From positions 1,472,001-1,536,000 of the forward strand of contig OY760937.1 of NCBI GenBank assembly GCA_963664225.1: a DNA stretch of 64,000 nt, in the 5' to 3' direction. Below, piece by piece: positions 28,223 through 45,496 of this stretch. This DNA is from Verrucomicrobiia bacterium (lineage in GTDB: Bacteria > Verrucomicrobiota > Verrucomicrobiia > Limisphaerales > UBA1319). Under the pieces are notes generated by a model. That model saw only the letters and a list, made by a program, of their open reading frames with translations. It ran no database searches and was not told where the DNA came from. The first letter of the stretch is position 1. The number at the start of each line of letters is the position of its first letter. The position numbers were made by a program, and so were the translations under genes.

Positions 28223-28774
28223 ACTGATGGTGAAAGGGTTTACACATGAGGCCCGCCTCCCTAAATGGCCGGGCGTTGGCAGGACATCCCCGTTGGGTGA
28301 GACGCTCAATTAATTCTGCAAATTCTTGGTGGTCCTGTGGTAACGCAAGCGCACGAAATTCCAGGAAGTTAACCCCTGGTCTTTATAAACCTGATTCTGT
28401 GTTCGTAAGCGACTTAATATCAAAGCTTTTTGGTTCAGCAAATATCCATCGTCCGGCCCCAAGGCTCGTCTGCTTTCAACTTGTGCCAATGCTTCCTCAC
28501 CGCGTACGTCCTCTGACAATGCCATGCTGAACCAGAAGCGGACATCTTTCCATTTCCGGTCACGCTCTGGCGAGATAGGTTATGCAACCTTGAAGCACCG
28601 AATTGCTTCGATTGGTTTCTCGTCAAACAAAAGGACAAAAGGAGAGTCGTTGCTGTTAGTGGCGAGATGAAATGGATGCAAAACGGGCGGTTTGAAATGG
28701 GATCTTCTTCGTGTTGGTTTTCTTCAAGGTGAGGTTGCTTCGATTTGACGGACACAGGAGCGGAGCGAAACTTA

Positions 28775-29128
28775 ATGAAAAACCGTATGAAGCAATCTGT
28801 GATTCCCGATTCCAAGACTCATCCGAAGTATGATTCTGCATTTAAGCAGGAAGCCGTGAACCTCTGGAAATCCAGCGGGAAATCGGCAGCCACGGTGGCG
28901 GCTGAGTTGGGGATAAAAATGGAGCGGCTCTATGCCTGGCGCGCAAAATATGTGCCGCTGCCAACAGGGGAAGGAGCCGAAACAAAGACCCGTGAGCAGT
29001 TGCTGGCCGACAATGCCGCTTTGTTGCGCGAACTGGACTATGTGCGCCAGCAGCGGGAGATTCTAAAAAAAACGTTGGGAATTCTTTCGGACCCCCAGAG
29101 CAACGCTATCAACGGGTTGAAGCGATGA
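28775..29128 (+). CDS. IS3 transposase OrfA
   Basis: KYDSAFKQEAV...VAAELGI....LYAW, REILKK. A8 slippery run at 29065-29072 with an open -1 frame into OrfB. Confidence 0.9.
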   Translation: MKNRMKQSVIPDSKTHPKYDSAFKQEAVNLWKSSGKSAATVAAELGIKMERLYAWRAKYVPLPTGEGAETKTREQLLADNAALLRELDYVRQQREILKKTLGILSDPQSNAINGLKR

Positions 29129-29967: not shown

Positions 29968-30289
29968 CCTATATGTGTCTTCTGTGTCCGATTTATCGAA
30001 GCAAGCCCAAGGGACTCTTCTTCCTTCTTCATCTTTTTGATCTTTCTTTAGCCTTCTTTTCTTCCCTTATTTCTCTCTACTTTTCGGGGTTGGTTCCTTT
30101 TGATTTTGGAACCGATGAACACCGCCCGCCATCGCCGCCGTATCTTACAAGACGCCTGTTTGGAGCAAAGTCGTGCAATACAAGAGGTTGTGCCAAGCCC
30201 TTCACCTCGTAACTTGCAAGACCTCTGTTCAATGCAAATCCCTTTGGTTGTTGGTTTTATCTCCATGCTCGTCGGTAGCTGAGCCGGTT

Positions 30290-30572
30290 TGCGGGGTGGG
30301 TGAGTTTGACCCCACGCCTTCAAGGCGTTTGAGGACGGCAGCCCGATCCAGGGCGAGCTCCCGCGCAAACTTGGGCTTGGACCACCCCTTATCGAATAGG
30401 ACAACAATGGTTTGTTGGTGAAGCATTTTAAGTTGATTCGGAGCCCCTCGGAGGGGCGATGTTTCGGTGGCCCACGCTCGAGGTTTGTCGTGCCGTCTAT
30501 TCAGGGGGCGGTGAGCGGCGGGAACGGACTTTCGCATCCCAATTCGTGTTCCCGCCGATCGTTGCGCGTAAC
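30290..30572 (-). pseudogene. IS21 (IstA N-terminal HTH) remnant
   Basis: NQLKMLHQQTIVVLFDKGWSKPKFARELALDRAAVLKRL resembles IstA N-termini. Confidence 0.5.
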
Positions 30573-30574
30573 GG

Positions 30575-30800
30575 ACTCACCCGCCTGGTCAAAGACAATC
30601 TTCCTTCCGCGCGTGGGGAATATAATTGTCATTAGCCAATTTCTGGAATATTGGCCTAGTTCAACGGCTGCCAGGGATAGAAAACAGATGGGATGTGGTA
30701 TTGGGTTCGTTGGAGCTTTTGGTGGTACATGGGGTGCAGATGTAAATCGCTCCTAGTGATTCGGAATGCGGCCTCAGCTTGTTGGATTTTGAATAACTTT
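30575..30800 (-). pseudogene. IS1634-like transposase remnant
   Basis: IQQAEAAFRITRSDLHLHPMYHQKLQRTQYHI, then a frameshifted FPTRGRKI. Confidence 0.6.
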
Positions 30801-31296
30801 GCCTTTGTTGATCGGCCTCTTTCTCGATGAACTTGAACCGCAGCAGTTAAGCGCAACACGCGCGTCTCCCCCATTGGAAGCAGTCAATCCTGTTGCCACT
30901 GGGCGGCAGACAGGCTTGCCGGGTTTGGTTTGCATTGACGCTGCCCTTGTAGAGTTTGGCTGCAGCCGAATAGCGTTCCCGCCATCTGCCATTCGCCGCT
31001 CCACCCTGGCTGGATTTGTGTCGGGCACTAACCAAGCGCATGGTCACTATTCATAAACTCGCCGAGCGCTCAGAATCGGTCGGCAACCGTGCCAAATCCT
31101 CCGACGCCCAAATGTGACGTCGTTGCGAGGCACTCTCACTACTCACACTCGCAGGATGCACCACCCCCCCGCACCGAATCAAGATGCTGTTCCTCAGTCA
31201 CGCCAATAAGCGCAAGATTCGAACAATGGCTAATTCCTGCTTTGATCAGCGCGCATCGGATCACAGAGTGCTTTTTTAAAGCGGGCCTCGAGGCTG

Positions 31297-32841
31297 CTAC
31301 TTAACCCAACCGCCCCAGCCAAAAACAAGGAATACATAGAAGCCAGAAAACAATACAATAGGGACAAAACGGGCGCGTGATCTTTCGGAATCTGCGAGGC
31401 GCGTTTCGCGCAACGCCAGTGACATACCGACCAGCAAGAGCGACATGGCTGCAATGGAGAGGGTCGGAAGCGTGAGCCACGCCAACGGCTGGGGCATGAT
31501 TTTGGAGTTCATTTTAATGGCTGTCCTCACTCCGGTTGGATCGGTCCAGGCGTATGGGATAAATCCCACCCATGAAGTGAACTTCTCCAATCCCTTGGCC
31601 ATGTGTCCTGTGGCAACCACAACAACCATGGGCAGCGCAAGGCGACGCCATGCGTCACCCAGAGATTTTGCACCGCCCAATACCATCGTTAGACTCCCTA
31701 AGAGCGTCCAGAGCAGGAGCGGCAAGATGAGAATCGTCCACAAACCTTGAATCCAACCGTTTGCAGAACTGAGGTTGAATGCCATGCTGATTTGCCTGGG
31801 CACCCACAGAAACACGGTTTCGGCTGATTTCCAGACGCCACTGAGTTCGTATGTTACAAAACCGGAGACGATAATCACGAATAATGTCACCGGCCATGAA
31901 GCAAGTTGTTCGCGGGCGTCAGCTTTTGAGAAGGGCGCACGAATGAGGAGTTGCATTGCATCGGTTGTGTCCGCCTTAATGCAATCACCGCACACCAGAC
32001 AGTGCTTGTTCGAGTGCAAGCGCGCAGGATTTAGCAGCGAGCGACAGAGCTGGACTTTGGAAGCCGTGTTATTCGACTGGCACCCATTCTGGCCTGCCGG
32101 TCGGACTGCAAGCATTCCACCGCGTCCGTAGGCGCTCAACAGTATGGACACGGGACAGAAACCGCGGCAAAACGAGCGATCCATAAAGAAAAGTCCGACA
32201 GCAAACGCAATGGTCAGAGAGGTCCAGAGAAACAAGGACGTATAATGGGGCACGCGATGGATTTGTACGCCGGGCACGAGCAACTGCAAGAAGGCGAACA
32301 AGAGAACCACCAAACCGCCTGAGGCCAGCAAACGAGGAAGCGGACGCTGGCTGATTCCGAGTTTTTGGCCCATCCGTTCCGCCTGGAAGGAAACCAACTC
32401 AAGCGGACAAACGATGCACCAAACACGCCCCACCAGGAATGTCACCCAGACGATACCAGGCCACCATAGGCCCCACATCGCCAGGCTTACCAGGTTGGTT
32501 TTGGCGTAAAGTTTGGCATTAACATCGTTCGGTGTGTAAAGGCCCCAACCCATGATCGCTAATGTAGTGAACACCAGCAGCAGCAGCATTTGCAGCATGG
32601 AGGGAAATGCCGACGACCCCACAACGCTTCGGACCGCACGGTATTTCAGCAAATTGAACCCGTGATCGATTGCAGGATTGTTGGATAACCGTGACTTGCG
32701 TTTAGTGATGGCGCTGAGCATTGGATTATATCTTGAGGGAGTGTGAATGACATGCCGACCGAAAGGCAATATTCCCAGTTTGAGTGATTGATTGGCTTTT
32801 AGGCCCCGCCGGTTCCCTGGATTCCCCCGCATTCCGGACAT
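31297..32841 (-). CDS. Polytopic membrane 4Fe-4S binding protein (NapH/MauN/YccM-like)
   Basis: WGLWWP, GRVWCIVCPLE, RSFCRGFCPV, CLVCGDCIKA and multiple TM segments. The true start is probably downstream (~32721). Confidence 0.85.
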   Translation of the reverse strand: MSGMRGNPGNRRGLKANQSLKLGILPFGRHVIHTPSRYNPMLSAITKRKSRLSNNPAIDHGFNLLKYRAVRSVVGSSAFPSMLQMLLLLVFTTLAIMGWGLYTPNDVNAKLYAKTNLVSLAMWGLWWPGIVWVTFLVGRVWCIVCPLELVSFQAERMGQKLGISQRPLPRLLASGGLVVLLFAFLQLLVPGVQIHRVPHYTSLFLWTSLTIAFAVGLFFMDRSFCRGFCPVSILLSAYGRGGMLAVRPAGQNGCQSNNTASKVQLCRSLLNPARLHSNKHCLVCGDCIKADTTDAMQLLIRAPFSKADAREQLASWPVTLFVIIVSGFVTYELSGVWKSAETVFLWVPRQISMAFNLSSANGWIQGLWTILILPLLLWTLLGSLTMVLGGAKSLGDAWRRLALPMVVVVATGHMAKGLEKFTSWVGFIPYAWTDPTGVRTAIKMNSKIMPQPLAWLTLPTLSIAAMSLLLVGMSLALRETRLADSERSRARFVPIVLFSGFYVFLVFGWGGWVK

Positions 32842-33602
32842 TCAGGATTGCGGCTAATGCGTATGCGCCGATGGCTCATATTCGACAGGTTCATGGAGAG
32901 TAATATGCTGTAAAGAGGTTCTCCAAGGTGGCTGATCACTTTGATCGCCTCCATTGCACCCAGGCAGGCGACGGAACCTGAAACGGCTCCAAACACAGGG
33001 AACTGTCGTTTCCATGCCTGTGGTTGTTCCGGATAAAGGCAGCGAAGGCACGGCGTTTTTCCAGGAACAAATGTCGTGATGTGGGTTTCCAGTCCATACA
33101 TGGCACACTCGATCATTGGTTTGCGCTGAAGCACGGCTTCTCGATTCATGGCGAAGCGCTCTTCGAACAGGGGTGCACAATCGATGACGATATCTGCTGA
33201 CGAAACAGCTTGAGCAGCATTTTCCGGCGAAATGTTTTCGTTAACCGCCACAATCTCAACATCAGGGTTCAATTCGTGGATTCGCCGGGCGATGGATTCG
33301 ATGCGCGGTTTTCCCAGCCAGTCACGAGTCATGAGCAGTTGACGGTTCAGGTCCCCTGGCATCAAGTTGCCGCCGTGGTAGAGCACCAAACGCCCCACTC
33401 CGGCAGCGGCCAATTCATACGCGACAAGGCCTCCCAAACCGCCGCATCGTGAAATGAGCGCGGAAGCATTTTTTAGCTTGCGCTGCCCCTCCTCACCAAA
33501 ACCCGGAATCCACATTTGCCATTCGTAAATGGCGCGATCAAGATCAGTGAGCTCCCTGGTCGGTTGTGGTGTCCCCCTTTTCAAATTCTTCAATGCGTTC
33601 AT
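32799..33602 (-). CDS. HesA/MoeB/ThiF family E1-like adenylyltransferase (HesA-type)
   Basis: GQRKLKNASALISRCGGLGG, DLNRQLL, DCAPLFEERF, PCLRCLYP, CPECG. Confidence 0.9.
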   Translation of the reverse strand: MNALKNLKRGTPQPTRELTDLDRAIYEWQMWIPGFGEEGQRKLKNASALISRCGGLGGLVAYELAAAGVGRLVLYHGGNLMPGDLNRQLLMTRDWLGKPRIESIARRIHELNPDVEIVAVNENISPENAAQAVSSADIVIDCAPLFEERFAMNREAVLQRKPMIECAMYGLETHITTFVPGKTPCLRCLYPEQPQAWKRQFPVFGAVSGSVACLGAMEAIKVISHLGEPLYSILLSMNLSNMSHRRIRISRNPECPECGGIQGTGGA

Positions 33603-33877
33603 CCTCCGGACATGGGTGGCATCAGCGCAACAACGTCTCCATTGTTTAGCGAAGGTGGATTCCTGATGAAAATCAGATCATTGTTAATGGCAATCAATAT
33701 GGATGGACGAATTTTTCCGTCCGGGCAAAAGACAAGATTCGCCAAGGCCGCCCCTCGTTTTTCCGCCGCGGTGGCGAGCAACTCGAGTAATGAGCAATTG
33801 TCAGCGACCGTGCAGGTCTCTGAATTTGTTCCTGCTGCCGCATTTGCCTGCGCAATATAGTCGATCGTGATTTTCAT
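33599..33877 (-). CDS. MoaD/ThiS ubiquitin-like sulfur carrier
   Basis: 92 aa ending LNNGDVVALMPPMSGG. Confidence 0.9.
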   Translation of the reverse strand: MKITIDYIAQANAAAGTNSETCTVADNCSLLELLATAAEKRGAALANLVFCPDGKIRPSILIAINNDLIFIRNPPSLNNGDVVALMPPMSGG

Positions 33878-33890
33878 AGAGAAGCGCGCA

Positions 33891-34283
33891 TTATTTCCAC
33901 AGAATCAGCAACCCGGCTCCGACAATGAACACGGCAAATACTTTTCTAAGAATCTCGGCGGAGAGTTCGAACGCAATGGAGCTGCCAATATTTGCCCCAA
34001 CCACGGCGGCGGCAGCCAGCACCGCGACGATCCATGGATTGATCTTGATTGTTGGGTTGAGGCAATACCGGGTTGCGGCCATCAACACCATGGGAGCCAT
34101 GACGAGCAGCGACATGGCCTGCGCGGTTTTTTGGGAGAACACCAGAAAGTAAACCAGCGCCGGGATCATGATTATGGCGCTGCCGACTCCCAAACTTCCT
34201 GAAATCGTTCCTGCCACAAGTCCGATCAGCACAACCCAAATCCATTGCAGTGCGGTAAGCGTTGTCATGTCCTCTCCTTCCAC
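33891..34283 (-). CDS. TSUP (TauE/SafE) family transporter, half-size
   Basis: GLVAGTISGSLGVGSAIIMIPAL...QKTAQAMSL; about 4 TM segments. Confidence 0.85.
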   Translation of the reverse strand: MEGEDMTTLTALQWIWVVLIGLVAGTISGSLGVGSAIIMIPALVYFLVFSQKTAQAMSLLVMAPMVLMAATRYCLNPTIKINPWIVAVLAAAAVVGANIGSSIAFELSAEILRKVFAVFIVGAGLLILWK

Positions 34284-34326
34284 GAGCTTCGCAAAGCCTG
34301 ATCCGTTCTGTTTATTTTTATCTTAT

Positions 34327-35064
34327 TCATAGCTGGTTTTGATTGGTTTCAGTATTGCATCGGACCGCAGCCAGGATTTCCGTCTCCGACGGCTCGCGCA
34401 GTGTTTTCTTCACGACAGGCACCAGTTCGGATTCACTCACACGCCCATCATCAAGGCGGAACAATACATCGGCCAGCCTGGCCGCCTCGCTGCGACGATG
34501 TGTAACGTGCAGGATGGTGATGCGAGTTTCACGTTGAACACGATGAAGCAAATCAGCCAGTGGCTCGCGCGTGCCGTCGTCGAGCGCGGAAAGCGGCTCA
34601 TCAAGCAACAACACGCGGGGTCGGAGCGCCAGGGCCCGCCCCAGGGCGACCCGCTGACGTTCCCCGCCGGACAGGCCAACTGGGAGGCGTTCCAGCAAGG
34701 ATCCAATCCCCAGTTGATGTGCCAACTCCGTCACCTGGCCCGATATTTCATCGGGTGGACGATGACGCACGCGCAGGGCAAATCCAAGATTCTCACGCAC
34801 GGTCATGGTGGAAAATAAAGCGCCGTCCTGCGGAACATATCCCAGCCCGCGTTCACCAGGCGCCAGATGCGTGACTTCCCGTTCTCCCAAGTGGACGCGG
34901 CCGACATTGGGACGGCGCAGGCCGCAGATGATTTCAAGCAACGAGGTCTTGCCCCCGCCCGTGCGCCCCATCAGCACGCCATAGCTTCCGGTTGGCACAA
35001 GGAACGAAATATTCGCCAGGGCAAAGGCGCCGGCACTCCATGCAATGTCTTCCAGACGAATCAC
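34327..35064 (-). CDS. modC: Molybdate/tungstate-type ABC ATPase
   Basis: Walker A GRTGGGKT, YVPQDGALF, LSGGERQR, LLLDEP. No TOBE tail. Confidence 0.85.
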   Translation of the reverse strand: MIRLEDIAWSAGAFALANISFLVPTGSYGVLMGRTGGGKTSLLEIICGLRRPNVGRVHLGEREVTHLAPGERGLGYVPQDGALFSTMTVRENLGFALRVRHRPPDEISGQVTELAHQLGIGSLLERLPVGLSGGERQRVALGRALALRPRVLLLDEPLSALDDGTREPLADLLHRVQRETRITILHVTHRRSEAARLADVLFRLDDGRVSESELVPVVKKTLREPSETEILAAVRCNTETNQNQL

Positions 35065-35843
35065 AGGCGCTCCCCCACGAGGCGGACGGTGGCGAGCACC
35101 ACCGTGGCAAGCGCCACCATTACCAGGCTCACCGCAATGGCGGCTTCAAGATTGCCCACACTCAGTTCCAGCCAGACACTGGTCGGCAGGACCTCGGTCT
35201 TCATCCGTGTGGCGCCGGCGAACACCAGAATCGGACCGAACTCCCCCAGGCTGCGCGCCCAGGCAATACTCGCCGCGGCAAACATCCCGTGTCGCGCCGC
35301 CGGCAGCGTCACCAGCCAGATCGCCCGCGCCCTGGTGCATCCCAGTGTAAGGGCCACATCCTCCGGACGCGCTGACAGATGCTCAAACGTCCCTCGCATC
35401 GTGCGAACCGCGAATGCCGCGCCGATGACGAACTGAGCCAGCACGACACCGCCAATGGTGTATGTCAATGGCACCACACGTTCAATGAGATGGCCCGCCA
35501 TGGTCTGAAAGAAGATCAGAAGGCAAAGCCCCACAACCATGGGCGGCAGCACGATGGGAATGTCGAGCGCGGCATCCAGCCAGGCGCGGCCCGGGAAACG
35601 GCCACGTGCCAGCAAATAGCCCACGGGCACGGCAAGCAGCAACGACAGCAGAGCGGTGAGGGTGCAACTGAGCAGACTCAGCCCGATGGCGTAACGAATT
35701 TCCCGTGTCCGCAGCGCATGCCACAGATCCCCGGGCGAACTATGAACGGCAGTGGCGCCGAGCAGTGCCATCCAGAACAAAAGGTAACTCCCGGTGATGA
35801 CGCCGAGTGCCAGCCACAAAGGATCGAATTTGGGCCGGTTCAC
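35061..35843 (-). CDS. modB: Molybdate-type ABC permease
   Basis: LDIPIVLPPMVVG, EDVALTLG, WARSLGEFG. Confidence 0.88.
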   Translation of the reverse strand: MNRPKFDPLWLALGVITGSYLLFWMALLGATAVHSSPGDLWHALRTREIRYAIGLSLLSCTLTALLSLLLAVPVGYLLARGRFPGRAWLDAALDIPIVLPPMVVGLCLLIFFQTMAGHLIERVVPLTYTIGGVVLAQFVIGAAFAVRTMRGTFEHLSARPEDVALTLGCTRARAIWLVTLPAARHGMFAAASIAWARSLGEFGPILVFAGATRMKTEVLPTSVWLELSVGNLEAAIAVSLVMVALATVVLATVRLVGERL

Positions 35844-37390
35844 TGGGAGGCCTGTTTTGGATCGGCTTCGTCCGCCAGAAGCCAGTCTGGCACCTTGATG
35901 TCGGCGCTCTTGATCGCAGATTCACCCCTCCAGCGAAAGCCTGCGGTTTCAAAGCGCGCCTGGTGGGCTCGGAGAGAATCCAGTAATCGGGTGGCAAGCT
36001 GGCGGTGCTGTGAATCCCCGCGCACACTAAACGGCTGCACTGCCTTGGCTCCGGGAAGGTCGAGTTCCAGATAATCGAGATGATTGCTTTGAGGAGCAGC
36101 GTTCACTTGATAAACGATCGCCGCGTCCAGGGCACCTGCACGCAGTTGATTGATTAGAAAGTCTGCCGTGGGCACCTGGACGACAACATTCTTCTGAACG
36201 TTGGTTTCCAGATTCACACTGCGCAAAAGGCCGCGAGTGATGAATCCAAGCGTGCTTTGCTGCGCATTGCAAACGCCAACACGAAGCCCGGGTTGAGCAA
36301 GATCGGACAGAGTGTGAACCTGGCGCGGATTGCCCTTTTGCACCGCCAGTCCAATGCCAGTTTCCGTCAAAACCACCGCCTCAGGGAAATACCGGGCAAC
36401 GGGTGGCACAAAGCAGAGGTCGCAGGCATAATAGGCGTCAGGAAACTTCGGACTGCTTGCTTCAGCCATGGCCTTCATGGAGGCGCACAGCACTCCGCAA
36501 CCGTTGAAGACGGTGGTGACCTCCGCGCCTTCACGGTCGGCAAACTCACGAAGCAAACCCTCGATGGCCGGACGATTCACACCGCCACTGTATAGAATGA
36601 GCTCAGGCCGGGCCGCCCACTGGTCGCCTGTCACCGGGGATAACCCGCTCGTCTTGAAAACCACGCCTCCCTTCTCTGGTGCCGCCAGGTAACGGGCGAA
36701 ACGCAGCGCGGCGGCAGACTCCTGGGCAAAGCTCAACACCGCCACACTGACATTTTCGACACGCGCGGACAGTTCGGGCGCCTCCACGGCCTCCAGTCCG
36801 GGGAACAATGCCACTGTGGAATTCCAGACAATCGCCACATCCACCGCTCCAAGTTTCAGATCGTTCGCGATGTCCGCAACCGTGGGTTTCGTCACCACGG
36901 CATGTTCCGCGAGCGCAGGGTAATTCGTTCCCAGCGCGGCCTTCGTCGCCCGTCCCACACTGGCCGCTTCGGGATTCGCAAGCGCCACGCGCACCCCGTC
37001 ACGCCGAAGGTCATCCAGTGTCTGGATGTGCAATGGGTTTCCAGCCCGCACTGCAATGACCGGATGCTGGCGGGCGAGCGGAATGACTTCTTTGATGACT
37101 TCATACTTGCGCGCGTCGGCAAGGGCGCCGTCATCCGCGGCAATGAACAGGTCGCCTTTCTTGGCAACACGTATGTTCGCGAGTAGCGTGCCGGTGCCCC
37201 CATACTGCAGTTGCACCTCCACACCCGTCTCGACACGGTACTGCCCGGCAATCGTCTCAACCGGTTTCTTTAAACCTGCCGCGCAATAGACAACGAGCGG
37301 ATCGTCAGCCGCTGATGCCGACAAAACAAAGGCGGCAAGCGTGACACTGCAGGCCACATGCTTCCATATTATTGTGCTTATTATTTTCAT
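35840..37390 (-). CDS. modA: Tandem two-domain ModA-like oxyanion-binding protein
   Basis: Signal peptide. Two ModA repeats: YCAAGL..YGGTGTL..DLFIAAD..GNP..ALANP and YSGGVN..FNGCGVL..DAYYACD..GNP..GVCNA. Confidence 0.85.
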   Translation of the reverse strand: MKIISTIIWKHVACSVTLAAFVLSASAADDPLVVYCAAGLKKPVETIAGQYRVETGVEVQLQYGGTGTLLANIRVAKKGDLFIAADDGALADARKYEVIKEVIPLARQHPVIAVRAGNPLHIQTLDDLRRDGVRVALANPEAASVGRATKAALGTNYPALAEHAVVTKPTVADIANDLKLGAVDVAIVWNSTVALFPGLEAVEAPELSARVENVSVAVLSFAQESAAALRFARYLAAPEKGGVVFKTSGLSPVTGDQWAARPELILYSGGVNRPAIEGLLREFADREGAEVTTVFNGCGVLCASMKAMAEASSPKFPDAYYACDLCFVPPVARYFPEAVVLTETGIGLAVQKGNPRQVHTLSDLAQPGLRVGVCNAQQSTLGFITRGLLRSVNLETNVQKNVVVQVPTADFLINQLRAGALDAAIVYQVNAAPQSNHLDYLELDLPGAKAVQPFSVRGDSQHRQLATRLLDSLRAHQARFETAGFRWRGESAIKSADIKVPDWLLADEADPKQASQ

Positions 37391-37414
37391 ATATATAATA
37401 TTCTATTGATATAG

Positions 37415-38344
37415 TCAGTGCGTGTGATCCTTCGGCTTGATAACGACAGTCTCCGGCTTGAGCGAATCATCCGCCTGAACTGCGGAGCCGGACGCCAAAC
37501 CACGTGCAGCACCGGCTTTCTTCAATTCCACATCCCAATCCACGCGCATAAGGAGATCCCAACCAGGATTTTGAGATTTGACTTCGCAAGAGCAGGAGCC
37601 GAGGAGAAATCGTGTCGCTTCCTCGACGAATTCCTCGGTCAACCGGTCATGCGGCCAGGCGCCAAGCACCCGGCCGCGGCCGAAAACCACGGCAACGAAC
37701 GGTTCTTCGGAAGGAAATGATTTCAATCCCGCCGGTCCGGCAAGCAGCGAAAGGAGCCCTGCTTCACTGGCATCGGACCTCTTGAGGCGCAGCAGGGATA
37801 GCTGCACCTTGAGCTCCGGCCCGGGACCCAGCCGGCTTTCGGGATCGCCGGGATCCAAAGGGGGCAGGCCGGAAGCCGATTCAAGGAAGCGCAGGCGCCC
37901 TTCCAGCAAGCGGACTGCTGCTTCATTTCGTTCCCGATCACTGCCCTCGACGAGCACCCAAACTCCAGAATCACCGGCCAGGATTCGTCTTTTCAAATCC
38001 TGCCGGGCCGGCGAGTCTGTGAGAGTGCGATAAACCGCCGGGGTAAGTTCTCCCTCCCAAACAGGCGTCGCAGCGCCACGAACATGAGATGGAAAGAACA
38101 ACCGCGTCCCATTGGTCGAGACGGTGGTTTCCAGGTTCACGCCAGAGCTGCCGTTCAAATTCCGGAACTCCGCGGCCAGCGGTTCCGCATGCAGAACCGC
38201 TGCCGATGCCTCGAGTCGAAATGCGTCCGCCGGCCATCGATCCAACGCGTAGCGAAAGACTGGAATATCGCAGCCGAACACGGCTGGCATGCCGAGCATC
38301 AACGCTAGGGCAAGACTGGTGGTTTTGGAGGTTGTCCGTAGCAT
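37415..38344 (-). CDS. Exported hypothetical protein with N-terminal Cys and a CSC motif
   Basis: Signal ending AVFG|CDIPVFRYALDRW, thioredoxin-like VWVLVEG segment, LLGSCSCEVKSQNPGWDLL. Confidence 0.75.
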   Translation of the reverse strand: MLRTTSKTTSLALALMLGMPAVFGCDIPVFRYALDRWPADAFRLEASAAVLHAEPLAAEFRNLNGSSGVNLETTVSTNGTRLFFPSHVRGAATPVWEGELTPAVYRTLTDSPARQDLKRRILAGDSGVWVLVEGSDRERNEAAVRLLEGRLRFLESASGLPPLDPGDPESRLGPGPELKVQLSLLRLKRSDASEAGLLSLLAGPAGLKSFPSEEPFVAVVFGRGRVLGAWPHDRLTEEFVEEATRFLLGSCSCEVKSQNPGWDLLMRVDWDVELKKAGAARGLASGSAVQADDSLKPETVVIKPKDHTH

Positions 38345-41300
38345 TTGATTTTTCCGTCTGTGGTTACAATAAAGATGCGGCCTTGGGCGACCGAGACGCC
38401 ATCCCAGACCGGCGGGCTGTCAATGGTAAAATCACGCGCGACCTGACCATTGCCGGAATTGAAGATTTTCACCAGCGCCCCGCGCTTGCCGCTCAAGCTC
38501 GCATCCTGTTCTTCCAGTTCCTTTTGAACGGTTGGATCCTTTTTGGTGAGCCTCTCAAACATTTGCTCTTCATTGACGAGATCCGGGGGGCCCGCAACGA
38601 CAAGGTTGGTGCCGGACATGGAAAAACCACGGGTCGAAATGGGGACATAGGCGGCCCAGTCGTATTTCACAAAGGTGCCTGCGCCAGCCTGGGCTTTGGC
38701 GGCTCCCGCACCACCGGCACGACGCGCCAACTTGTTGGTTCCACCGACAGAGGGCGTAGTCGCGTCCGGCGTGTTGGTCACCTGGCTGGCACCCTCTACC
38801 GCCGCCGCCGCCAGGGCTCCGGATCGATTTAAGTCACCCTGGTCCTGAGGCAGGGGAATTGCCGATGCAACGCCGGGGGCCGGATTTGTCGAACCAGCCA
38901 CAACGGGTGGAGTCAATTTATGAAACCACAAGGCCGCGCCATTCCTGCCCTTGCCCACATCCACTCCGGTGAGCACCCCATTGATGCCGTTGGTGGATTC
39001 GTCACGGGCGTCGTTGTTGTTGAAGGAATAGGCGACGACCGCATTACTGGCGGACCGGGCATCCGCCACCAGGGAACGAGCCTGAATTTCCTCCGTGCTG
39101 AGGGCGCGATAATAAATCGCAACTTCGTCAAGCAATCCCGCATAAGGATTGTTTTCCTCGTAGTCACCCACCGAGCCGGCGGAATCCACGCCGAACTCGA
39201 GAGGTTGAGCCGGCTTCGAATCGAGCAGGGAGGTGGCAGTGCCGGAGTTGACGAAATGGCCGTCCACGTAAAGACGAATGGCGCGGTCGGTATCCAACAC
39301 GGCCGCCAGATAATGCCAGCCTTCGCCAAGGGGTGAGAGGGCCGGCACCGATACGAGATCTCCCCCGTTGCGGATGTGAAAGACCGGGGTGCCATCACGC
39401 AAGGAGAGCGCATAACCGTAAGCTGGGCCGCCATGAGCGAGAATGACACCATTGGCGTTGTCCGGCAGAACCCAGGCTTCGACGGTAATCGCCTTGCCGG
39501 CTGGATTCAACCGCTCGTCATCAGGAAACCTGACGCCGGGAAAATCGACTTCAAGGTTAACCTGGGCGTTCGTGGCTCCCCCACCCTGGCGATTGCGCCG
39601 GTTGGCCGCCCTGTTCGGGGTTGCGAGTTGCGGTTTCACGTCCGGAGCCACGCGACTGGATGAGAACAACTGATTCTGCATCGTTGTTGTCCATTTGAGA
39701 TATTGCGGCTCCCGGCCATAACCGAAGACTTTCTCATTGTCGAACACCAGCATGCGCCCGGCGGGAGCATATTTACCGGCTTGATAGTAGCCGTTGTGGC
39801 CTCCGGCAAAGTTTTTGCCAAAGACCCAATAACTGCGATGGAAAAGCGCCTCGTCCAGAAAACCAATGGGCGAGAAGAGGTGAGCGCCTTCACCTTGTTG
39901 GGCGGCGCCCTGCTCCACCGCGTTGCCGGACACAGGGCCGATATCCACGCGTTTGCCGTCCGGGCCAATTTTCTGGCTGCGCAGGTAAGTCCATTTGCCA
40001 TCACTCACCAGGATGTCGTTCAGGCCAACCGGCATTTGCAGGGTCTTGATCCGCAATTGAAGATCGCCGCCGGTCTCGGGATCTGTCTTGTCGTAGAGTT
40101 GTTCCACCAGCTTGCTGCCAGTGGCGGCATCGAGTTTGAAAAAGCGCAAACCGCCATCGAGGAACACAGACCGGCCGGTCACAAAACTGACCTGGCCATT
40201 TTCCACCAGCACGCTGCCAGGCACCGGCCAGACACTCTCAAGTTGTTCAAATGCAAACAATCGCTGGTCGGGATAGGGTCGATAACGCCATGCCAGGACG
40301 CCATCCGTCGCACGCAACGCATAGACGCTGCCATCACGGCTGCCGAAGAGCACGCGGCCCTTCCAATAGGTGGGCGGCGAATCCACACGTCCACCCGTGA
40401 TGAAATGCCAGAGCGGCCTGCCACTGTTAAGATCGAGGGCGTAAATGGTGCCCGTGTCAACCTGCGCGACAAAGGCTTTTCCATTGGCCACTGTCAGCGC
40501 GCTTAATTGGCCGCCAAGAGGAATATCCCATGCCTGTGACAGATCCTCACTCAGAGACTGATCCGAGAAGCCGCTGCGTTGGCTGTCATGCCGATACGTC
40601 GGCCAGTCGAGCGGCCCTGGTTCGACTCCGAGCGGAGAGTCGTAAGCGGGTCCCCGTTCAAGCCTTTGATCGTCAGGCAGTAAATTGGCGGACTGGCTGG
40701 CACGGTGAGGAGCCAGGGCGTTGAGACCGTCCAGCTTCGCCTCGGGATAGCACGCGCAGTTGTGCGGCCCGGCATAGATCAGGCCGTTGGCGGGCATGGA
40801 ACCGTAAAGGCAGGCGGCGCGCACCCAGTGGTTAATCTCCCAGTGTTTGGCCCTGAAATCCACAAATTCAATTCCGGTGCGGGATGGGATGATGAAGCGT
40901 TCGGTGGCCTTGGCCATATAGCAGCGATGGTGAAACCAATAGGTGTCCACGTCGGGCAGAAACCGGCTCTTGATCTCACCCGTTTCTGGATCGCGGCCGA
41001 TGAATTCACCGGACATGTTTCCAGAAATCGTCGGCGCATTCCAGAGCAGCCCGCCAGCCAGAATCAAATCCTCCGGAGAGCGGTAGCCCGATTTGCTATG
41101 GGGCGCGGTCCACAGCTCTTTTCCACTTCTGGCATCGAAGCTTTTCATCGATCCGTCACCGCCTGCATAGAGGACCAGGTTGCTGCTCAGGAGCACCCGC
41201 GGGCCAAAGTTGTATTCGAAGAGCTGGCGTCTGCCAGCCGGTTGACTGGCCCAGAGCTGATCTCCGGTTTTCGGATCCAGGCTGACGAGCTTTTCTCCAT

Positions 41301-42549
41301 CATGATACACGAGGCGTTGGCCATCGGCCGCCAGCGTCAGCGGCGCCACTTTGCCCTCCTTTTTCCAAAGCAGCCGTCCGGTGGCCGCCTCCACAGCCTG
41401 CAAGTCACGCGGTTTTTCATCCCAGTCGAATTCGGTCTCCACCCGTTTTTGATCGCCTGTATTGAACTTGGGCGCAAAGTCTTCGAGGGTCCAATTGCGT
41501 GGATTGACAAGCACGTAAAGAACACCGTCCACGTTCAGGATTTCCTCGGCGCCTTTTGTATTCTCGTAAACTCGGAGAGTGCGGCCAGTGGCCCCGTCCA
41601 GTTTGCTGACGGGCGCATCGATGGACAGGGTGACATAAACATTATTACCCTCGGCCACCAGCCGCCGGGCAAGCTGTGTGGGTCCGGACTTCAACGGCCA
41701 CAGATGCGGCTGCCAGTGGGGAATTTCGTTGGTCCACAAGATGGTCCCATTGAAAGCATCGCGCGCCGTAAGCACCCAATGGGCCGGTAACAAAACTGAG
41801 GTGCGGGAACCCTGATCCATGATATAGAAAAGCCGCCCCCCCGCCGATACCTGGGCGCTGAGGCTTGACATGCGGTCGTGATGCCGGGACCAGCGCGGAC
41901 TGCCAATCCACTGGTAGCCTTCGGGCGAAGCCACCTGCAAATCCCGCGATACGGCATTGCCTTTCGCGTCGTAGAAGTAATGGGTCCAGTCGTCAATATC
42001 CGTGGGACGAGGCTTCACAAGCTTGCGCCATTCCCCACCCTCCTTGTAATAGGCAATGCCGTTGGGAACCAGCACGCGGATTATTTCATCGCGAGAAACG
42101 CCGTCCAGGTTTTCAGCGACAAGCAGATTGACCAGATTATCGATGTAAGGCAATGACCCCGGGCGCCAAAGATCAACCGTGACCTGACCGTTTAACTTTT
42201 CTGAGAGCAGCCATTCGCGAGCCGACTGGACTTTTGCAGCATCGCGCTCCAGACCCTGAACCTGATAGCTCACGTTCCGCCGCAGAGCTGCGGTCAATTG
42301 GCCGTCGCCGGCTCCCAGATGAACGACGAAACCGCCCTTCACGCCCGTTTCCTCAATGATCCGGGCTGACTCCGCCTCCGCGGACGGACTCACCGCAAAT
42401 GCAGTGGAAGCCCCGATGGCGATTGCCGCAATGCCTGCCGCAAGGAAGCGACGCAGCGAGAAGTGATGGTATGACTTTCGCCTGAGAGGCGAATCCAACA
42501 AAACAGTATTCAGTGGTATTTGCATGGGCGCGTTTTCAATTCCAATCAA
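38305..42549 (-). CDS. Secreted multidomain protein: SAM-methyltransferase-like + PQQ-type beta-propellers + LamG
   Basis: Signal; VHLGAGDG/LPYIDNLVNL; many A.D..TG..LW repeats; DWPTYRHD; HHRCY, RAACLYG, PHNCACY; ITVEAWV...GLLDEVAIYYRALS. Confidence 0.85.
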   Translation of the reverse strand: MIGIENAPMQIPLNTVLLDSPLRRKSYHHFSLRRFLAAGIAAIAIGASTAFAVSPSAEAESARIIEETGVKGGFVVHLGAGDGQLTAALRRNVSYQVQGLERDAAKVQSAREWLLSEKLNGQVTVDLWRPGSLPYIDNLVNLLVAENLDGVSRDEIIRVLVPNGIAYYKEGGEWRKLVKPRPTDIDDWTHYFYDAKGNAVSRDLQVASPEGYQWIGSPRWSRHHDRMSSLSAQVSAGGRLFYIMDQGSRTSVLLPAHWVLTARDAFNGTILWTNEIPHWQPHLWPLKSGPTQLARRLVAEGNNVYVTLSIDAPVSKLDGATGRTLRVYENTKGAEEILNVDGVLYVLVNPRNWTLEDFAPKFNTGDQKRVETEFDWDEKPRDLQAVEAATGRLLWKKEGKVAPLTLAADGQRLVYHDGEKLVSLDPKTGDQLWASQPAGRRQLFEYNFGPRVLLSSNLVLYAGGDGSMKSFDARSGKELWTAPHSKSGYRSPEDLILAGGLLWNAPTISGNMSGEFIGRDPETGEIKSRFLPDVDTYWFHHRCYMAKATERFIIPSRTGIEFVDFRAKHWEINHWVRAACLYGSMPANGLIYAGPHNCACYPEAKLDGLNALAPHRASQSANLLPDDQRLERGPAYDSPLGVEPGPLDWPTYRHDSQRSGFSDQSLSEDLSQAWDIPLGGQLSALTVANGKAFVAQVDTGTIYALDLNSGRPLWHFITGGRVDSPPTYWKGRVLFGSRDGSVYALRATDGVLAWRYRPYPDQRLFAFEQLESVWPVPGSVLVENGQVSFVTGRSVFLDGGLRFFKLDAATGSKLVEQLYDKTDPETGGDLQLRIKTLQMPVGLNDILVSDGKWTYLRSQKIGPDGKRVDIGPVSGNAVEQGAAQQGEGAHLFSPIGFLDEALFHRSYWVFGKNFAGGHNGYYQAGKYAPAGRMLVFDNEKVFGYGREPQYLKWTTTMQNQLFSSSRVAPDVKPQLATPNRAANRRNRQGGGATNAQVNLEVDFPGVRFPDDERLNPAGKAITVEAWVLPDNANGVILAHGGPAYGYALSLRDGTPVFHIRNGGDLVSVPALSPLGEGWHYLAAVLDTDRAIRLYVDGHFVNSGTATSLLDSKPAQPLEFGVDSAGSVGDYEENNPYAGLLDEVAIYYRALSTEEIQARSLVADARSASNAVVAYSFNNNDARDESTNGINGVLTGVDVGKGRNGAALWFHKLTPPVVAGSTNPAPGVASAIPLPQDQGDLNRSGALAAAAVEGASQVTNTPDATTPSVGGTNKLARRAGGAGAAKAQAGAGTFVKYDWAAYVPISTRGFSMSGTNLVVAGPPDLVNEEQMFERLTKKDPTVQKELEEQDASLSGKRGALVKIFNSGNGQVARDFTIDSPPVWDGVSVAQGRIFIVTTDGKIKCYGQPPKPPVLP

Positions 42550-42660
42550 GGCCGTTTGGGAACCATTCCCAAACGAACGGGAGGAGTCATGCGCGCCCCT
42601 GGAGAGGTAGCAACCGAATCATTCCCAGACCGCAAGTATGGCTGCACACAGCAGCCTATA

Positions 42661-42696
42661 TACGATGTATATTATCGTCTTTTATATCGGTGTCAA
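42661..42696 (-). promoter_or_regulatory. Putative promoter with an overlapping ModE-like palindrome
   Basis: Minus strand TTGACA-N16-TAATAT. Overlapping imperfect inverted repeat CGATGTATA-N9-TTTATATCG (42663-42689). Confidence 0.45.
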
Positions 42697-42905
42697 TCCC
42701 ATGCGTGATATATTTTTTGCATTCGATAATCTCACCGATCCAATTCAGCATCTCAGTTACACAACCGTTCTTATTATATTGTATTACAATTGTTTATATT
42801 GCTACTGCAAAAGCGTTCACGCGGTCTTCAGGGTGTGGATTCTGTGGAATGATTTCTTTCATGGATTGGCGTACATGCCTTTTATACGATGCTTTAAGGC
42901 GTCTT

Positions 42906-43667
42906 TTATCTGTCTGCTATCCATTGGATCTGGTCTTTCTTAACCCAGCCTGAATCCCCCGTGCTTAGGCAGAGAAAAAGGTAATCGCCTCGCGCAAACT
43001 GACAACGGCCCACCTCCCCGGCGGGAATGCGCGTGAGAACCTGTGCGTGGCTCGTGGGAGTCTGGCAGAGCGGCGTTCCGGGCTTTAATACGACACCCAG
43101 ACTTGTGCGCGTGTGAATCCCCACCATACCGGGAATCGCCAACAGAAATATTCCGAATCCGATCGCTGCAAAGGACTGCGTCCAGGATGATCCGCGCAAT
43201 CCAAAGAGAACTGGCAAGACAAAAGCCAGTGTGACCGCAAGCCAGAAACTAACGGCTCCCACACAGGCCCATGCATCCACCGGCAGCCACGTGGAGAAGG
43301 TTTCCCACCAACGCAAGGATGGTTCGGCCAGTTGGCCCGAACGCCGGGCATACCGCAGGCTGGCGCTGGCAGCCTTATCCAATGGACTAATCCACAATGC
43401 ACGCTCCCAAGCCAGGATGGCTGTGCCGGAATGACGGCATTCCCATTCTGCGTTTCCAAAATTGTGCCACGCCTCAGCGGAAGGCGATTGCTTGATTTCC
43501 ACGGCAAACAACTTCGCAGCCTGGGCAAACTCCCGCGCTTCGTAAGCAGCACATCCCCGTTCAAAGATGTTTGTTTCGCCTTTTACGCCAAAAGTGGTAA
43601 TCGTCCAAATCAGGCCGGTCATTATAACGGCCATGCCGCGCGTAAACCTGAAAATGAGGGTCAGCAT
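42906..43667 (-). CDS. BatE-like TPR/membrane/SH3 protein
   Basis: AWHNFGNA...AILAWERAL TPR, two TM segments, C-terminal SGWV SH3b-like segment. Confidence 0.75.
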   Translation of the reverse strand: MLTLIFRFTRGMAVIMTGLIWTITTFGVKGETNIFERGCAAYEAREFAQAAKLFAVEIKQSPSAEAWHNFGNAEWECRHSGTAILAWERALWISPLDKAASASLRYARRSGQLAEPSLRWWETFSTWLPVDAWACVGAVSFWLAVTLAFVLPVLFGLRGSSWTQSFAAIGFGIFLLAIPGMVGIHTRTSLGVVLKPGTPLCQTPTSHAQVLTRIPAGEVGRCQFARGDYLFLCLSTGDSGWVKKDQIQWIADR

Positions 43668-45496
43668 AGACGCCTCCTCATTTGGGCAAGCAAGGTCTCC
43701 AATTCAGGTTGGAGCGACCACAGCATTTCCGTTCTTTTTGATTTACCTTCAAATGCGATTTCATCCGCGACCAAAAACAACTGGCGCACCAGAGTGCCCG
43801 CCTGCCCCTCACAGTCTGCATGCGGCAAAGCACGTATGATGTCGCTGCACACCAACGCCCCGGGACTGGCATGCAAATGGGGCGCGCCAGCCTCACGCAA
43901 TGAGGCGATTGCGGACCGAGCATACACCACCACATCATGGTCCCTGATCGCTCGACGGCGAATCCGTTCCAGGCGCCGAAGCTCACGGCGCGCCCGGGCA
44001 AATCGGACGATCTCCGGATGTGCTCTCAGAAAATGTTTGCGGCGATTCCACCCACAAAAAGCCGCCAGCACCAAGCCCGGGAATAATTGGAACAACCAAA
44101 AGGCCGGACGTTGCTGGAATGCCAACAATCCGGCACTGAAATGCACCGGGCGACGCGCAAGCGGACCCAACCCATCCAAATCGTGACCGGCAGGATTATC
44201 AACATTTGCACCCATCGCGTTCGCAGGCTGAAGCTGACCTGAGGCGCTGCCCCCCGGTGATGCCAGAACCAGTATCTGAGTTGAAGGAATCGTCAAGTCC
44301 ACATAGATCTGCCGTTCCGGATCGAAGCAGCTGAATGGTATCCTGGGCGTTCCCGTCATTCCCGGCTTCAGTGGAATCATGGTGTAATGAAACACGTTAC
44401 TGCCACGCTGCCAGATGCTGGCAGGCGGATTCACATCGGCGACGGCTGGAAACACCCTCCAACCTGGCGCATGTTCGACGCGCGGAGGTATCAGGCGCCC
44501 ATGGTTTCCCTCCCCACAAACCGTGATAGCCAGATCAAGGGGATCACCGGCATGAACTTCACGAGCCGAGGGTCTCGGCGAAGCCACCTCAAATTTGCCT
44601 ATCAATCCCGTAAACCCGGGCAGAGCACCATCGGGGAGATGCTTGACGACAATCTCCACCGGACTGGATTCCAGAAAGGGGCGATATCCAGCCAGCCGTA
44701 TGCTTTGCGGATCGGCGGTCGGACGACATTCCACAAAAGCCTGGCCATTGAGCGCCAGACGCCCTTCACGAACGGGAATGGCGATGACTTCGGCAATCGA
44801 TGCCGAAACAGATCGTCCGCCAACCGTGCGCATTTCACGTCGCAGCGAGCCCGTCACCCGATCAAACAGAAAGGCATCGCCAAGCAGCGTCGGATCCACC
44901 AGGCCAAAAACACCACTGTCTCCCGGATCGAGCACCACAATTCGCACGGGAATGGCCTGGGCAACATAAAAATCCCCATCAGGAATTTCGAGATGCAAGG
45001 AGGCGGCATGTCTGGCTTCAGGTGAACCGGCGGGGACCACCGTAAGGACCCGTGATGGCGCCACGAGCCGTCTTCCGCCAGCCTTCAACTCGAACGGACC
45101 AATTGGAAACGATCCCGGTGTCTGGGCAATCACACGATAGTTGAATGTGGCACGGTATTGAGACACCTGCCCTTTCGTCACAACGGATCTTCCAACGCCA
45201 CTTTTCGCAAGCTCAAGCCCCGGCGGCACGGGAATGCGTTCAGGCAAATCAACGGCATCCGGCTCCGTGGTGATCACCACCCTGTAGGTGGCTGGTTCTC
45301 CCGCAGCCACCACCAACGGATCAAAACCCGCAGCCACCACCACGTCCGATTCCACCGCCGCCTGCCGCAGCAACTGTGACATGGCGGAATTAAGCGGTGT
45401 GGACTCCGTATGGACAGGCGGATCCGGCGCTGGAAAAACCATGCACTCCAACACGAGAAGTCCGCCTGTAACAAGTGAAAGATATCGCGCAGTCAT
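43661..45496 (-). CDS. batD: BatD family protein
   Basis: Ig-like BatD repeats (GSFPIGPF, FTGLIGKF, GEGN, IPFSCFDP) and a C-terminal TM, in bat operon position. Confidence 0.75.
   Translation of the reverse strand: MTARYLSLVTGGLLVLECMVFPAPDPPVHTESTPLNSAMSQLLRQAAVESDVVVAAGFDPLVVAAGEPATYRVVITTEPDAVDLPERIPVPPGLELAKSGVGRSVVTKGQVSQYRATFNYRVIAQTPGSFPIGPFELKAGGRRLVAPSRVLTVVPAGSPEARHAASLHLEIPDGDFYVAQAIPVRIVVLDPGDSGVFGLVDPTLLGDAFLFDRVTGSLRREMRTVGGRSVSASIAEVIAIPVREGRLALNGQAFVECRPTADPQSIRLAGYRPFLESSPVEIVVKHLPDGALPGFTGLIGKFEVASPRPSAREVHAGDPLDLAITVCGEGNHGRLIPPRVEHAPGWRVFPAVADVNPPASIWQRGSNVFHYTMIPLKPGMTGTPRIPFSCFDPERQIYVDLTIPSTQILVLASPGGSASGQLQPANAMGANVDNPAGHDLDGLGPLARRPVHFSAGLLAFQQRPAFWLFQLFPGLVLAAFCGWNRRKHFLRAHPEIVRFARARRELRRLERIRRRAIRDHDVVVYARSAIASLREAGAPHLHASPGALVCSDIIRALPHADCEGQAGTLVRQLFLVADEIAFEGKSKRTEMLWSLQPELETLLAQMRRRLC

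Follow-up and report, generated by a model that had tools for sequence, protein, structure and literature searches.

An operon of Verrucomicrobiota that combines a tandem ModA-type importer, exported cysteine-rich proteins and a divergent E1-like protein

What would a bacterium that already has a canonical molybdate-binding protein and molybdenum cofactor (Moco) genes do with a second, altered set of importer and MoaD/MoeB-like genes, packed together with exported cysteine-rich proteins? This question is raised by an operon of a Verrucomicrobiia bacterium (assembly GCA_963664225.1), which we analysed within a 64,000-nt stretch of contig OY760937.1 (positions 1,472,001 to 1,536,000, hereafter the window). 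The operon comprises nine genes (g1 to g9), all on the minus strand at 31297-42549 of the window, with intergenic gaps from g1 to g9 of -40, 24, -4, -4, 43, 13, -4 and -43 nt. The nine packed, co-oriented genes described in an initial annotation, made from the letters of the sequence, are thus borne out (gaps of -43 to +43 nt), and its gene labels match the Pfam and NCBIfam results for the operon, where g2 falls in no family.

We consider it possible, and propose tentatively, that the operon serves auxiliary, envelope-spanning uptake and handling of a tetrahedral anion of molybdate or tungstate (Mo/W) size, possibly in a thio form. Two Cys/His-rich exported proteins (g1 and g2) would act outside the cytoplasmic membrane, a double ModA-type protein (g3) with a putatively hydroxyl-lined first pocket and a putatively thiol-lined second pocket would pass the ligand to a ModBC-type importer (g4 and g5), and a divergent, dedicated MoeB-like protein (g8), usually with a MoaD-like carrier (g7), would receive or process the cargo in the cytoplasm. 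The system would run beside the ordinary ModABC/Moco pathway and not inside it. What the data show is the gene content, its linkage and co-occurrence, the folds and the residues that are conserved, whereas the ligand, the direction in which it is passed on and any chemistry of g8 are inferred. We put the reading no higher because of the ligand and because two carriers of the system have no Moco genes. The parts are of known kinds (a ModABC-type importer, an E1 and ubiquitin-like protein (Ubl) sulfur relay, a thioredoxin fold), whereas their combination, with altered key residues, lies outside the family models used; no description of this cluster was found in the literature searched.

Conserved core, linkage and co-occurrence

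Scanning one genome per species and keeping the best 80 of 219 loci, we detected homologues (tblastn, 1e-5) of g1 in 65 loci, g3 in 65, g4 in 47, g5 in 42 and the E1-like g8 in 38, and homologues of the MoaD-like, TSUP and NapH-like genes (g7, g6 and g9) in 6, 1 and 0, respectively. Many loci are cut by contig ends, and linkage was counted only in loci with room for the gene in question. Counted in this way, g1 lies immediately 5' of g2 in 42 of 59 loci, g3 lies at most 1 kb downstream of g2 in 57 of 69, and g3, g4 and g5 occur together in 40 of 61. The E1-like gene stands right behind g5 in 27 of 58 loci; at any position in the locus, it was found in 34 of these 58. A complete ATP-binding cassette (ABC) set with room on both sides is seen in 28 loci, and 25 of them contain the E1-like gene. 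This gene takes one of two arrangements, either behind ModC or divergent upstream of g1 with MoaD; the second is that of the Roseibacillus/Akkermansiaceae group, where the MoaD is GG-ended. The conserved core is therefore a giant with PQQ-propeller and LamG domains (g1), g2, a tandem ModA, ModB, ModC and the E1-like protein, often with a MoaD-like carrier, and the synteny by which the initial annotation proposed to check its model is conserved for these six to seven genes in verrucomicrobial loci. No further gene family was widely common to the loci; the next open reading frame (ORF) clusters by count (6, 7 and 17) were dropped as antisense ORFs over g3, g5 and E1. The families are common in soil and freshwater Verrucomicrobiota.

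Individual loci vary around this core, and the set recurs in distant genomes, among them those of L110, L111, L129, L130 and L131. One of these loci (L130) keeps the order of the window (tandem ModA, ModB, ModC, half-TSUP, MoaD, E1), with a ThiS-ThiF fusion after the half-TSUP, and such fusions stand beside MoaD-E1 in both L124 and L130. Another genome (G120) carries two island copies (L110 and L111), each with a second E1, g2, an FtsX permease, an ABC ATPase, tandem ModA, ModB, ModC and E1; in L110 a ThiS gene follows the E1. In both copies the second E1 (373 aa, 35% to g8) adjoins g2; that of L110 is of MoeZ type with a rhodanese domain, and that of L111 is its orthologue. The L129 and L131 islands are similar, and L108 adds an extracytoplasmic function (ECF) sigma factor, an anti-sigma factor and a TonB-dependent receptor inside the island. 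A B12-binding radical SAM protein of 621-644 aa is encoded near the tandem-ModA genes of two distant genomes (L108:13018-14883 and L130:2057-3991). Four loci (L058, L079, L022, L039) come from bins titled Chitinophaga pinensis, Proteobacteria or Akkermansia muciniphila and sit among Chthoniobacterales-type sequences; these bins are probably mislabelled.

At the level of whole genomes, one set of 401 genomes of the phylum contained g2 in 29, a full-length tandem ModA in 14, orthologues of the E1-like protein (50-63% identity) in 13 and MoaE in 88. The g2 gene was present in 12 of the 14 tandem-ModA genomes, and the full tandem ModA in 11 of the 13 E1 genomes, with a twelfth (G339) having a half-2 fragment in a 215-aa open frame. 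E1 and tandem ModA co-occur even where they lie on different contigs (G129, G381, G408).

The importer and its exported partners

The g3 gene (35840-37390; all operon coordinates refer to the minus strand) encodes a tandem, or double, ModA-type substrate-binding protein of 516 aa with two SBP_bac_11 stretches, in contrast to single-module ModA proteins of ~230-260 aa, and both halves are predicted to have the ModA fold. The N-terminal half passes the curated modA cut-off (TIGR01256, 79.5 bits against 62.5, residues 37-240) and the second half stays below it; in a genome scan with modA, g3 scored 62.7 bits and the canonical copy 209.6 bits. Modelled alone, the second half reached a predicted local distance difference test score (pLDDT) of 94.2, and the structures closest to it are those of ModA, WtpA and a YvgL-like protein (TM 0.74-0.77, identity 14-15%). 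Across 26 diverse sequences three cysteines never vary (C36, C298 and C323), and C302 and C326 are also retained in 41 of 41 closer ones. Both halves keep ModA-like loop motifs, and the motif repeat between them (YGGTGTL in the first half, FNGCGVL in the second) puts C298 where half 1 has Thr66. This place is probably that of the anion-binding Ser39 of Escherichia coli ModA, in which case ModA would have a hydroxyl residue where the second half of g3 has an invariant cysteine. The tandem family comprises at least 1629 proteins, and databases call the g3 homologues molybdate-binding proteins.

The permease encoded by g4 (35061-35843) is of ModB type by its NCBIfam scores (TIGR01581 190 bits, cut-off 210; modB 155; WtpB 133; sulfate permeases 114-130). 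The ABC ATPase g5 (34327-35064, 245 aa) matches ABC_tran only and scores 215 bits against WtpC, 176 against the sulfate model and 169 against modC (cut-off 285), all below the cut-offs; it has no C-terminal TOBE regulatory domain of the kind that marks ModC. The operon thus shares with ModABC the fold of both g3 halves, a ModB-type permease, an ABC ATPase and the order binding protein-permease-ATPase, but differs in its tandem binding protein, the cysteine at a probable pocket position of the second half, the ATPase without TOBE, the separate canonical ModA in the genome and its presence in two genomes without Moco markers. We place the cargo in the Mo/W size class because the N-terminal half of g3 passes the modA cut-off, because the closest g3 sequences and structures are ModA/WtpA proteins having bound molybdate or tungstate, because permease and ATPase score best against Mo/W-type models, and because 12 of the 14 tandem-ModA genomes have Moco genes.

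The exported giant encoded by g1 (38305-42525, ~1406 aa) combines a signal peptide, a methyltransferase-like fold, PQQ-type propellers and a LamG domain (Pfam PQQ_2 1e-31, Laminin_G_3 2e-22). Its conserved start is the ATG at 42525; the ORF from the TTG at 42549 would give 1414 aa. Within a block at residues 535-606, H540, H541, C543, H574, C580, H596, C598 and C600 are each present in at least 95% of 50 homologues. Comparison with PDB sequences gave generic PQQ-blade matches only, including one to a tetrathionate hydrolase blade (9e-5). The products of g1, g2 and g3 bear Sec-type signals, and twin-arginine (Tat) export as a conserved trait of g1 was rejected, an RR-type motif before the hydrophobic core being found in just 1 of the 50 homologues.

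The second exported protein, g2 (37415-38344, 309 aa), is an orphan with no Pfam or NCBIfam family match, for which tandem thioredoxin-like folds and a Cys triad are predicted. Its relatives number 872 among 8000 candidates scored, and its family has at least 3349 cluster representatives at E<=1e-3 in the representative library, the named ones all being hypothetical proteins of Verrucomicrobiota. The structure model (pLDDT 79.9) has two thioredoxin-like halves; residues 108-260 align with thioredoxins (Z 10.3, root-mean-square deviation 2.5 over 101 residues for 7d6l, with dozens at Z 8-10), and the whole model resembles protein disulfide isomerase (PDI) bb' (Foldseek 1e-4), by which the protein would be assigned to the thioredoxin fold. 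A profile search of PDB sequences gave one chance-level match only (E 1.3). The triad of C25, C251 and C253 is retained in 127, 132 and 132 of 133 representatives, respectively. C25 looks like the first residue past the signal peptide, with a cleavage end that resembles the AxA of signal peptidase I and not a lipobox; the segment after it, PVFRYAL[DE]RW, is also almost invariant, and C251-S-C253 forms a C-terminal CSC motif. No cysteine follows strand 127-133, the start of helix 1 where the canonical CxxC has its place. The protein shares a predicted fold with redox-inactive thioredoxin-fold tandems (PDI b-b', ERp57, calsequestrin), from which it differs in sequence (8-17% identity), in the place of its conserved cysteines, none of them in a CxxC at the canonical site, and in being bacterial and exported.

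Downstream of g2, distant genomes usually have MacB/FtsX-type ABC genes or genes for PQQ-propeller proteins with malectin and methyltransferase-like parts. In L104, L106-L110 and L114 the genes after g2 are one or two FtsX-type permeases and an ATPase, in the manner of MacB/LolCDE-type systems; this module is missing from the operon of the window, and a LolA-like gene is present in L130. These associations bear on another reading, in which the thiol pocket and the Cys triads would handle a soft metal, a metalloid or an organic acid, or in which two modules (g1-g2 and g3-g8) would merely travel together. The occurrence of g2 with MacB/FtsX-type systems and without the importer in distant genomes fits such a reading, as do the organic phosphates bound by PEB3-like relatives of ModA and the TonB receptor and ECF sigma/anti-sigma pair inside the L108 island. 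The importer is found without g2 in only 2 of 14 genomes, however, both g3 halves have the ModA fold with ModA-like loop motifs, and a SelD-dependent selenium link was looked for and rejected (SelD exceeds its cut-off in 1 of the 14 genomes with tandem ModA and in 3 of the 10 controls). We give this alternative a low probability, above only that of the pterin-free centre discussed below.

The E1-like protein, its carrier and the cargo

The g8 gene (32799-33602) encodes an E1-like protein of ThiF fold (PF00899, 7e-52) that aligns end to end with ThiF (1e-33; residues 19-261 of the alignment to ThiF 1zfn) and MoeB (1e-29), and scores below every NCBIfam equivalog cut-off (best PRK08762 MoeB, 185 bits against 449). 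In a tree of 60 sequences, 51 cluster-type proteins were split by a long branch with 100/100 support from 9 housekeeping MoeB/MoeZ/ThiF paralogues of the same genomes; only branch length and support carry weight here, because the groups were set by identity to the query. The tree points to a clade of its own for the cluster-type E1. Its members retain the GGLGG loop, the DLNRQ motif, a lysine and both CxxC pairs, whereas in the consensus of the 51 the RYxR motif is replaced by IYEWQ, the DxD at the end of beta2 by HGGN and TDN by APLFEER, all three being retained by the nine paralogues. From MoeB/ThiF work we take the replaced positions to be the Arg finger, the ribose-binding acid and the Mg/ATP Asp. 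Thiocarboxylate production by g8 is not assured, because the residues with which canonical E1s adenylate are replaced, and the protein may be a pseudo-E1, or may use another nucleotide or other chemistry. A canonical E1 stands beside the cluster-type E1 in five distant loci (L110, L111, L124, L130 and L131), which suggests a mixed pair.

The carrier gene g7 (33599-33877) encodes a MoaD/ThiS-like protein with a beta-grasp family match (PF02597, 30.6 bits against 22.5) and a C-terminal SGG, and thus ends in the Gly-Gly typical of such carriers. It is not the MoaD equivalog (TIGR01682, 37.5 bits against 66.15), and MoaE lies ~2.9 Mb off beside another MoaD. A g7 homologue adjoins the cluster-type E1 in 9 Roseibacillus-type loci and in L110, L124, L127, L128, L129 and L130. 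With MoeB/ThiF and MoaD/ThiS pairs, g8 shares the ThiF fold, the Gly-rich loop, two CxxC pairs and an adjacent GG-ended carrier; unlike them, it belongs to a separate clade with three residues replaced, has no MoaE, ThiG or other acceptor enzyme nearby, and is often translationally coupled to the ABC ATPase with no carrier gene beside it. In L015, for example, ModC and E1 overlap by 4 nt, no carrier gene adjoins the E1 and ribosomal protein genes follow it. An E1-like protein without catalytic residues that is coupled to an ABC ATPase is an oddity in its own right.

A precedent for an E1-like protein with a genetic link to the supply of Mo and S is HesA of nif clusters: its loss is described as raising nitrogenase's demand for Mo and S, moeB as giving no rescue, and a Moco enzyme as unaffected (PMC6361004). 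The operon differs in having no nif genes. A second precedent is class 4e of Iyer et al. 2006, which consists of ThiS/MoaD, JAB and E1 neighbourhoods with sulfate ABC transporters (PMC1779556). Like these, the operon brings together a Ubl, an E1 and an ABC importer for an oxyanion. Unlike them, it has a doubled binding protein of ModA type and exported partners, and neither its nine genes nor the genes next to them include JAB, SirA, sulfate-reduction or sulfhydrylase genes.

Such neighbourhoods raise the alternative that thiosulfate or a related sulfane-sulfur anion is imported and its sulfur loaded on the MoaD/ThiS-like carrier, via a rhodanese where one is present, with the TauE-type half transporter exporting leftover sulfite. 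Sulfur-carrier parts are indeed abundant (the MoeZ-type rhodanese E1 of L110, the second E1 of L111, the ThiS-ThiF fusions of L124 and L130), the TauE-type g6 adjoins ModC in 4 loci, the system is found in genomes without Moco, and the class 4e survey describes a known class of ThiS/MoaD-like carrier, E1 and sulfate ABC transporter (PMC1779556). Yet g3 is ModA-like and not of the Sbp/CysP family, whose model it matches with 28 bits (cut-off 155), and the genome has two canonical Sbp/CysP genes of its own. The operon includes no gene for a sulfhydrylase, JAB or SirA, and its E1 is without the catalytic residues. Sulfite-reductase-family genes (NIR_SIR) occur in 23 of 24 panel genomes, cluster carriers or not, by which missing sulfur assimilation was rejected as an explanation, and Sbp/CysP and SulP patterns do not separate carriers from controls; this panel is not neutral, because the controls were chosen from MoaE-positive genomes. 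We regard the sulfur-anion route as unlikely, though as the first of the alternatives to be reckoned with. About 32 kb past the window end, a sulfite/nitrite-reductase-family gene adjoins ThiF (275.8 bits) and ThiS genes (G000, C1:1567902-1572091), in what looks like a CysO-type thiocarboxylate neighbourhood.

The remaining two genes are accessory. A half-size TSUP/TauE membrane protein of 130 aa is encoded by g6 (33891-34283), which covers positions 2-109 of the 237 of the TauE profile and so falls short of a full-length TSUP protein (two halves of four transmembrane segments, ~240-260 aa). It is not a truncation, because the half size recurs in L108 at 143 aa (TauE); half-size TSUP genes stand beside ModC in L013, L108 and L130. 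A NapH/MauN-like membrane ferredoxin is encoded by g9 (31297-32841), with weak matches (Fer4_5 22.8 bits, cut-off 22; NapH/MauN TIGR02163 49.7 bits against a curated 213). It is lineage-specific: a homologue (24% identity) was found in 1 of 40 related genomes and none in the same-genus genome, where the best match to the E1 is 37% identical and no orthologous E1 was found either.

In the initial annotation these genes formed part of a model in which a pterin-free Mo/W-sulfur centre would be assembled and passed on to the exported Cys-rich proteins, the electrons coming from the NapH-like protein. The invariant cysteines of g1, g2 and g3 and histidines of g1 are compatible with it, as are the occurrence of the system in genomes without Moco or nitrogenase and the near-constant company of importer and g2 (12 of 14 genomes). 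The conserved core and the non-canonical MoaD/E1 pair of that interpretation stand. Its electron donor finds no support, given the distribution of g9, and neither does TSUP as a part of the system, given that the half-size protein recurs in only 4 loci. Delivery fares no better: g1-g3 bear Sec-type signals, a twin-arginine-like motif occurs in 1 of 50 g1 homologues and no conserved exit for a cytoplasmic product was seen among the loci. Sulfur activation by the E1 is doubtful for the residues missing for adenylation. The model as a whole appears to us the least probable of those considered. Somewhat better placed, though still quite improbable, is a scheme of thiol capture in Planctomycetes-Verrucomicrobia-Chlamydiae (PVC) bacteria, where, outside the membrane, a thiol-lined ModA module together with thioredoxin-fold partners bearing Cys triads would take up an oxyanion-class element (Mo/W or a chalcogen) and hand it in to a non-adenylating E1-like protein and a MoaD-like carrier, giving a pterin-free, sulfur-bound product independent of Moco.

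We then asked how the operon relates to the Moco pathway of its own genome, a single contig of 5.78 Mb. A MoaD gene at 4,432,597, directly followed by MoaE (4,432,899) and MoeA (4,433,324), lies ~2.9 Mb from the operon, the canonical ModA (209.6 bits) is at 4,420,570, and the genome has seven ThiF-family, four ThiS-family and one molybdopterin-oxidoreductase match. The genome therefore has canonical ModA, MoaD, MoaE and MoeA elsewhere, and those of the operon (ModA, MoaD and E1) are extra copies. Because of this set, and because the E1 clade is distinct, we consider the operon separate from the canonical pathway, in agreement with the earlier suggestion that its MoaD/E1 is not the canonical Moco pair.

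Across genomes the picture is mixed. Five Moco markers were used (MoaA, MoaC, MoaE, MoeA and molybdopterin oxidoreductase). MoaE was present in 11 of the 14 tandem-ModA genomes and Moco genes in 12; the twelfth (G366) has MoaA, MoaC, MoeA and molybdopterin oxidoreductase but no MoaE match. On a link to molybdenum, the co-occurrence check proposed with the initial annotation thus went both ways, with Moco genes in 12 of 14 genomes and none of the five markers in the other two, which support that annotation. In two genomes, G366 (C92:17614-20281) and G263 (C65:47092-49789), MoeA, MoaA and MoaC lie together and molybdopterin oxidoreductase is present; neither has a MoaE match, yet both have a cluster-type E1 with a MoaD-like gene.

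The plainest explanation of these data would be a second molybdate transporter with a spare MoeB/MoaD for standard Moco synthesis, g1, g2, g6 and g9 being unrelated neighbours. The Moco genes in 12 of 14 tandem-ModA genomes and the database names of the g3 homologues speak for it. It is at odds, however, with the conserved linkage of g1, g2 and g3 as overlapping or near-touching genes, with an E1 that forms its own clade without the Arg finger and two Asp, with the persistence of the system where genomes have no Moco markers, with a tandem binding protein whose second pocket is probably Cys-substituted, and with the full canonical set elsewhere in the genome. We consider it rather improbable, more so than the sulfur-anion route.

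Our preferred reading, the auxiliary uptake and handling of a Mo/W-size anion, has in turn several findings to answer. PEB3-type ModA relatives bind organic phosphates, all transporter scores are below equivalog cut-offs, the E1 is without canonical catalytic residues, and neither a Moco riboswitch (Rfam, 28000-46000) nor a TOBE domain was found. None of MoaA, MoaC, MoaE, MoeA, molybdopterin oxidoreductase or nitrogenase was found in two carriers, G129 (95% complete, 7 contigs) and G357 (96%), nor any of the five Moco markers in the E1 carrier G339. The Moco link itself may be due to lineage and lifestyle, MoaE being common in the free-living families of the sample, and a comparison of 12 of 14 with 88 of 401 overstates the enrichment because the sample has many small host-associated genomes without MoaE. 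Moreover, g2 is more widespread than the importer: 17 of the 29 g2 genomes are without a tandem ModA, and of the 47 loci with room on both sides 9 lack g3 altogether, g1 still adjoining g2 in 7 of these. If the ligand is Mo or W, the operon would represent a second acquisition route with a HesA-like helper, and could explain HesA-type proteins; if it is not, thousands of 'molybdate transporter' annotations would be wrong.

Leader, promoter and surroundings of the operon

Upstream of g1, a candidate sigma-70-like promoter (TTGACA-16-TAATAT, 42669-42696, minus strand) matches the consensus at 10 of 12 positions, a consensus match only, which is weak when taken alone because the region has 8 such sites against 5.0 expected; the TTGACA box is retained in two relatives (L013 and L014). 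A conserved, structured 5' leader of ~120 nt (42526-42645, minus strand) follows it, runs up to the g1 start codon (the ATG at 42525) and is ~90% identical in L013 and L014, where the DNA upstream has diverged. A covariance model found the leader in all 8 sources, namely the window itself, two loci from genomes and five from metagenomes, with g1 downstream in the three metagenome loci where tblastn detected g1. Among 6 distinct leader sequences, 92% of cells pair and 5 pairs show changes at both positions, the terminal hairpin accounting for 4 of these; the covariation score was equalled by shuffles in 1 of 500 trials, and the helix GGCGCG/CGCGCC, which ends at the start codon, is invariant. 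Rfam gave no match at E<=1 across 28000-46000, and so no Moco riboswitch match in the leader. Over 100 loci the model found it in L013 and L014 and in none of the other 98, so that it is confined to close relatives and the five metagenome contigs. We regard it as a candidate cis-regulatory RNA.

The scan of the window covered 38 ORFs, two of them shorter operon ORFs; of the 65 window ORFs of at least 150 aa, 29 were left out, most of them overlapping a longer ORF. The 38 ORFs scanned include no Moco, nif or thiG gene, in line with the initial annotation. G+C content is 0.50-0.54 in g6-g9, 0.58-0.63 in g1-g5 and 0.56 in the genome, a difference too small for claiming a separate origin of g6-g9.

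Directly upstream of the operon lies a Bat/MoxR-type operon (43661-51007, minus strand) with a MoxR AAA_3 ATPase, a DUF58 and a DUF4381-like protein, two BatA/vWA proteins and a BatD-like protein; only the closest relative, L013, shares it. Further upstream are three consecutive sulfatase genes (51004-56000, minus strand) and a gene for a surface protein of 2332 aa with PA14, LamG and Ig domains (56187-63185, minus strand). On the other side, just downstream of g9, mobile and toxin-antitoxin-like genes occupy 22538-29967 (an Xre/MbcA-type antitoxin domain, a PIN protein, a phage-type integrase, a helix-turn-helix (HTH) repressor and an insertion sequence (IS) with an rve integrase). Beyond these, an RHS-repeat protein of 2017 aa is encoded with a 997-aa orphan upstream (12245-21326, minus strand), and G+C falls to 0.42-0.49 over 10-22 kb of the window.

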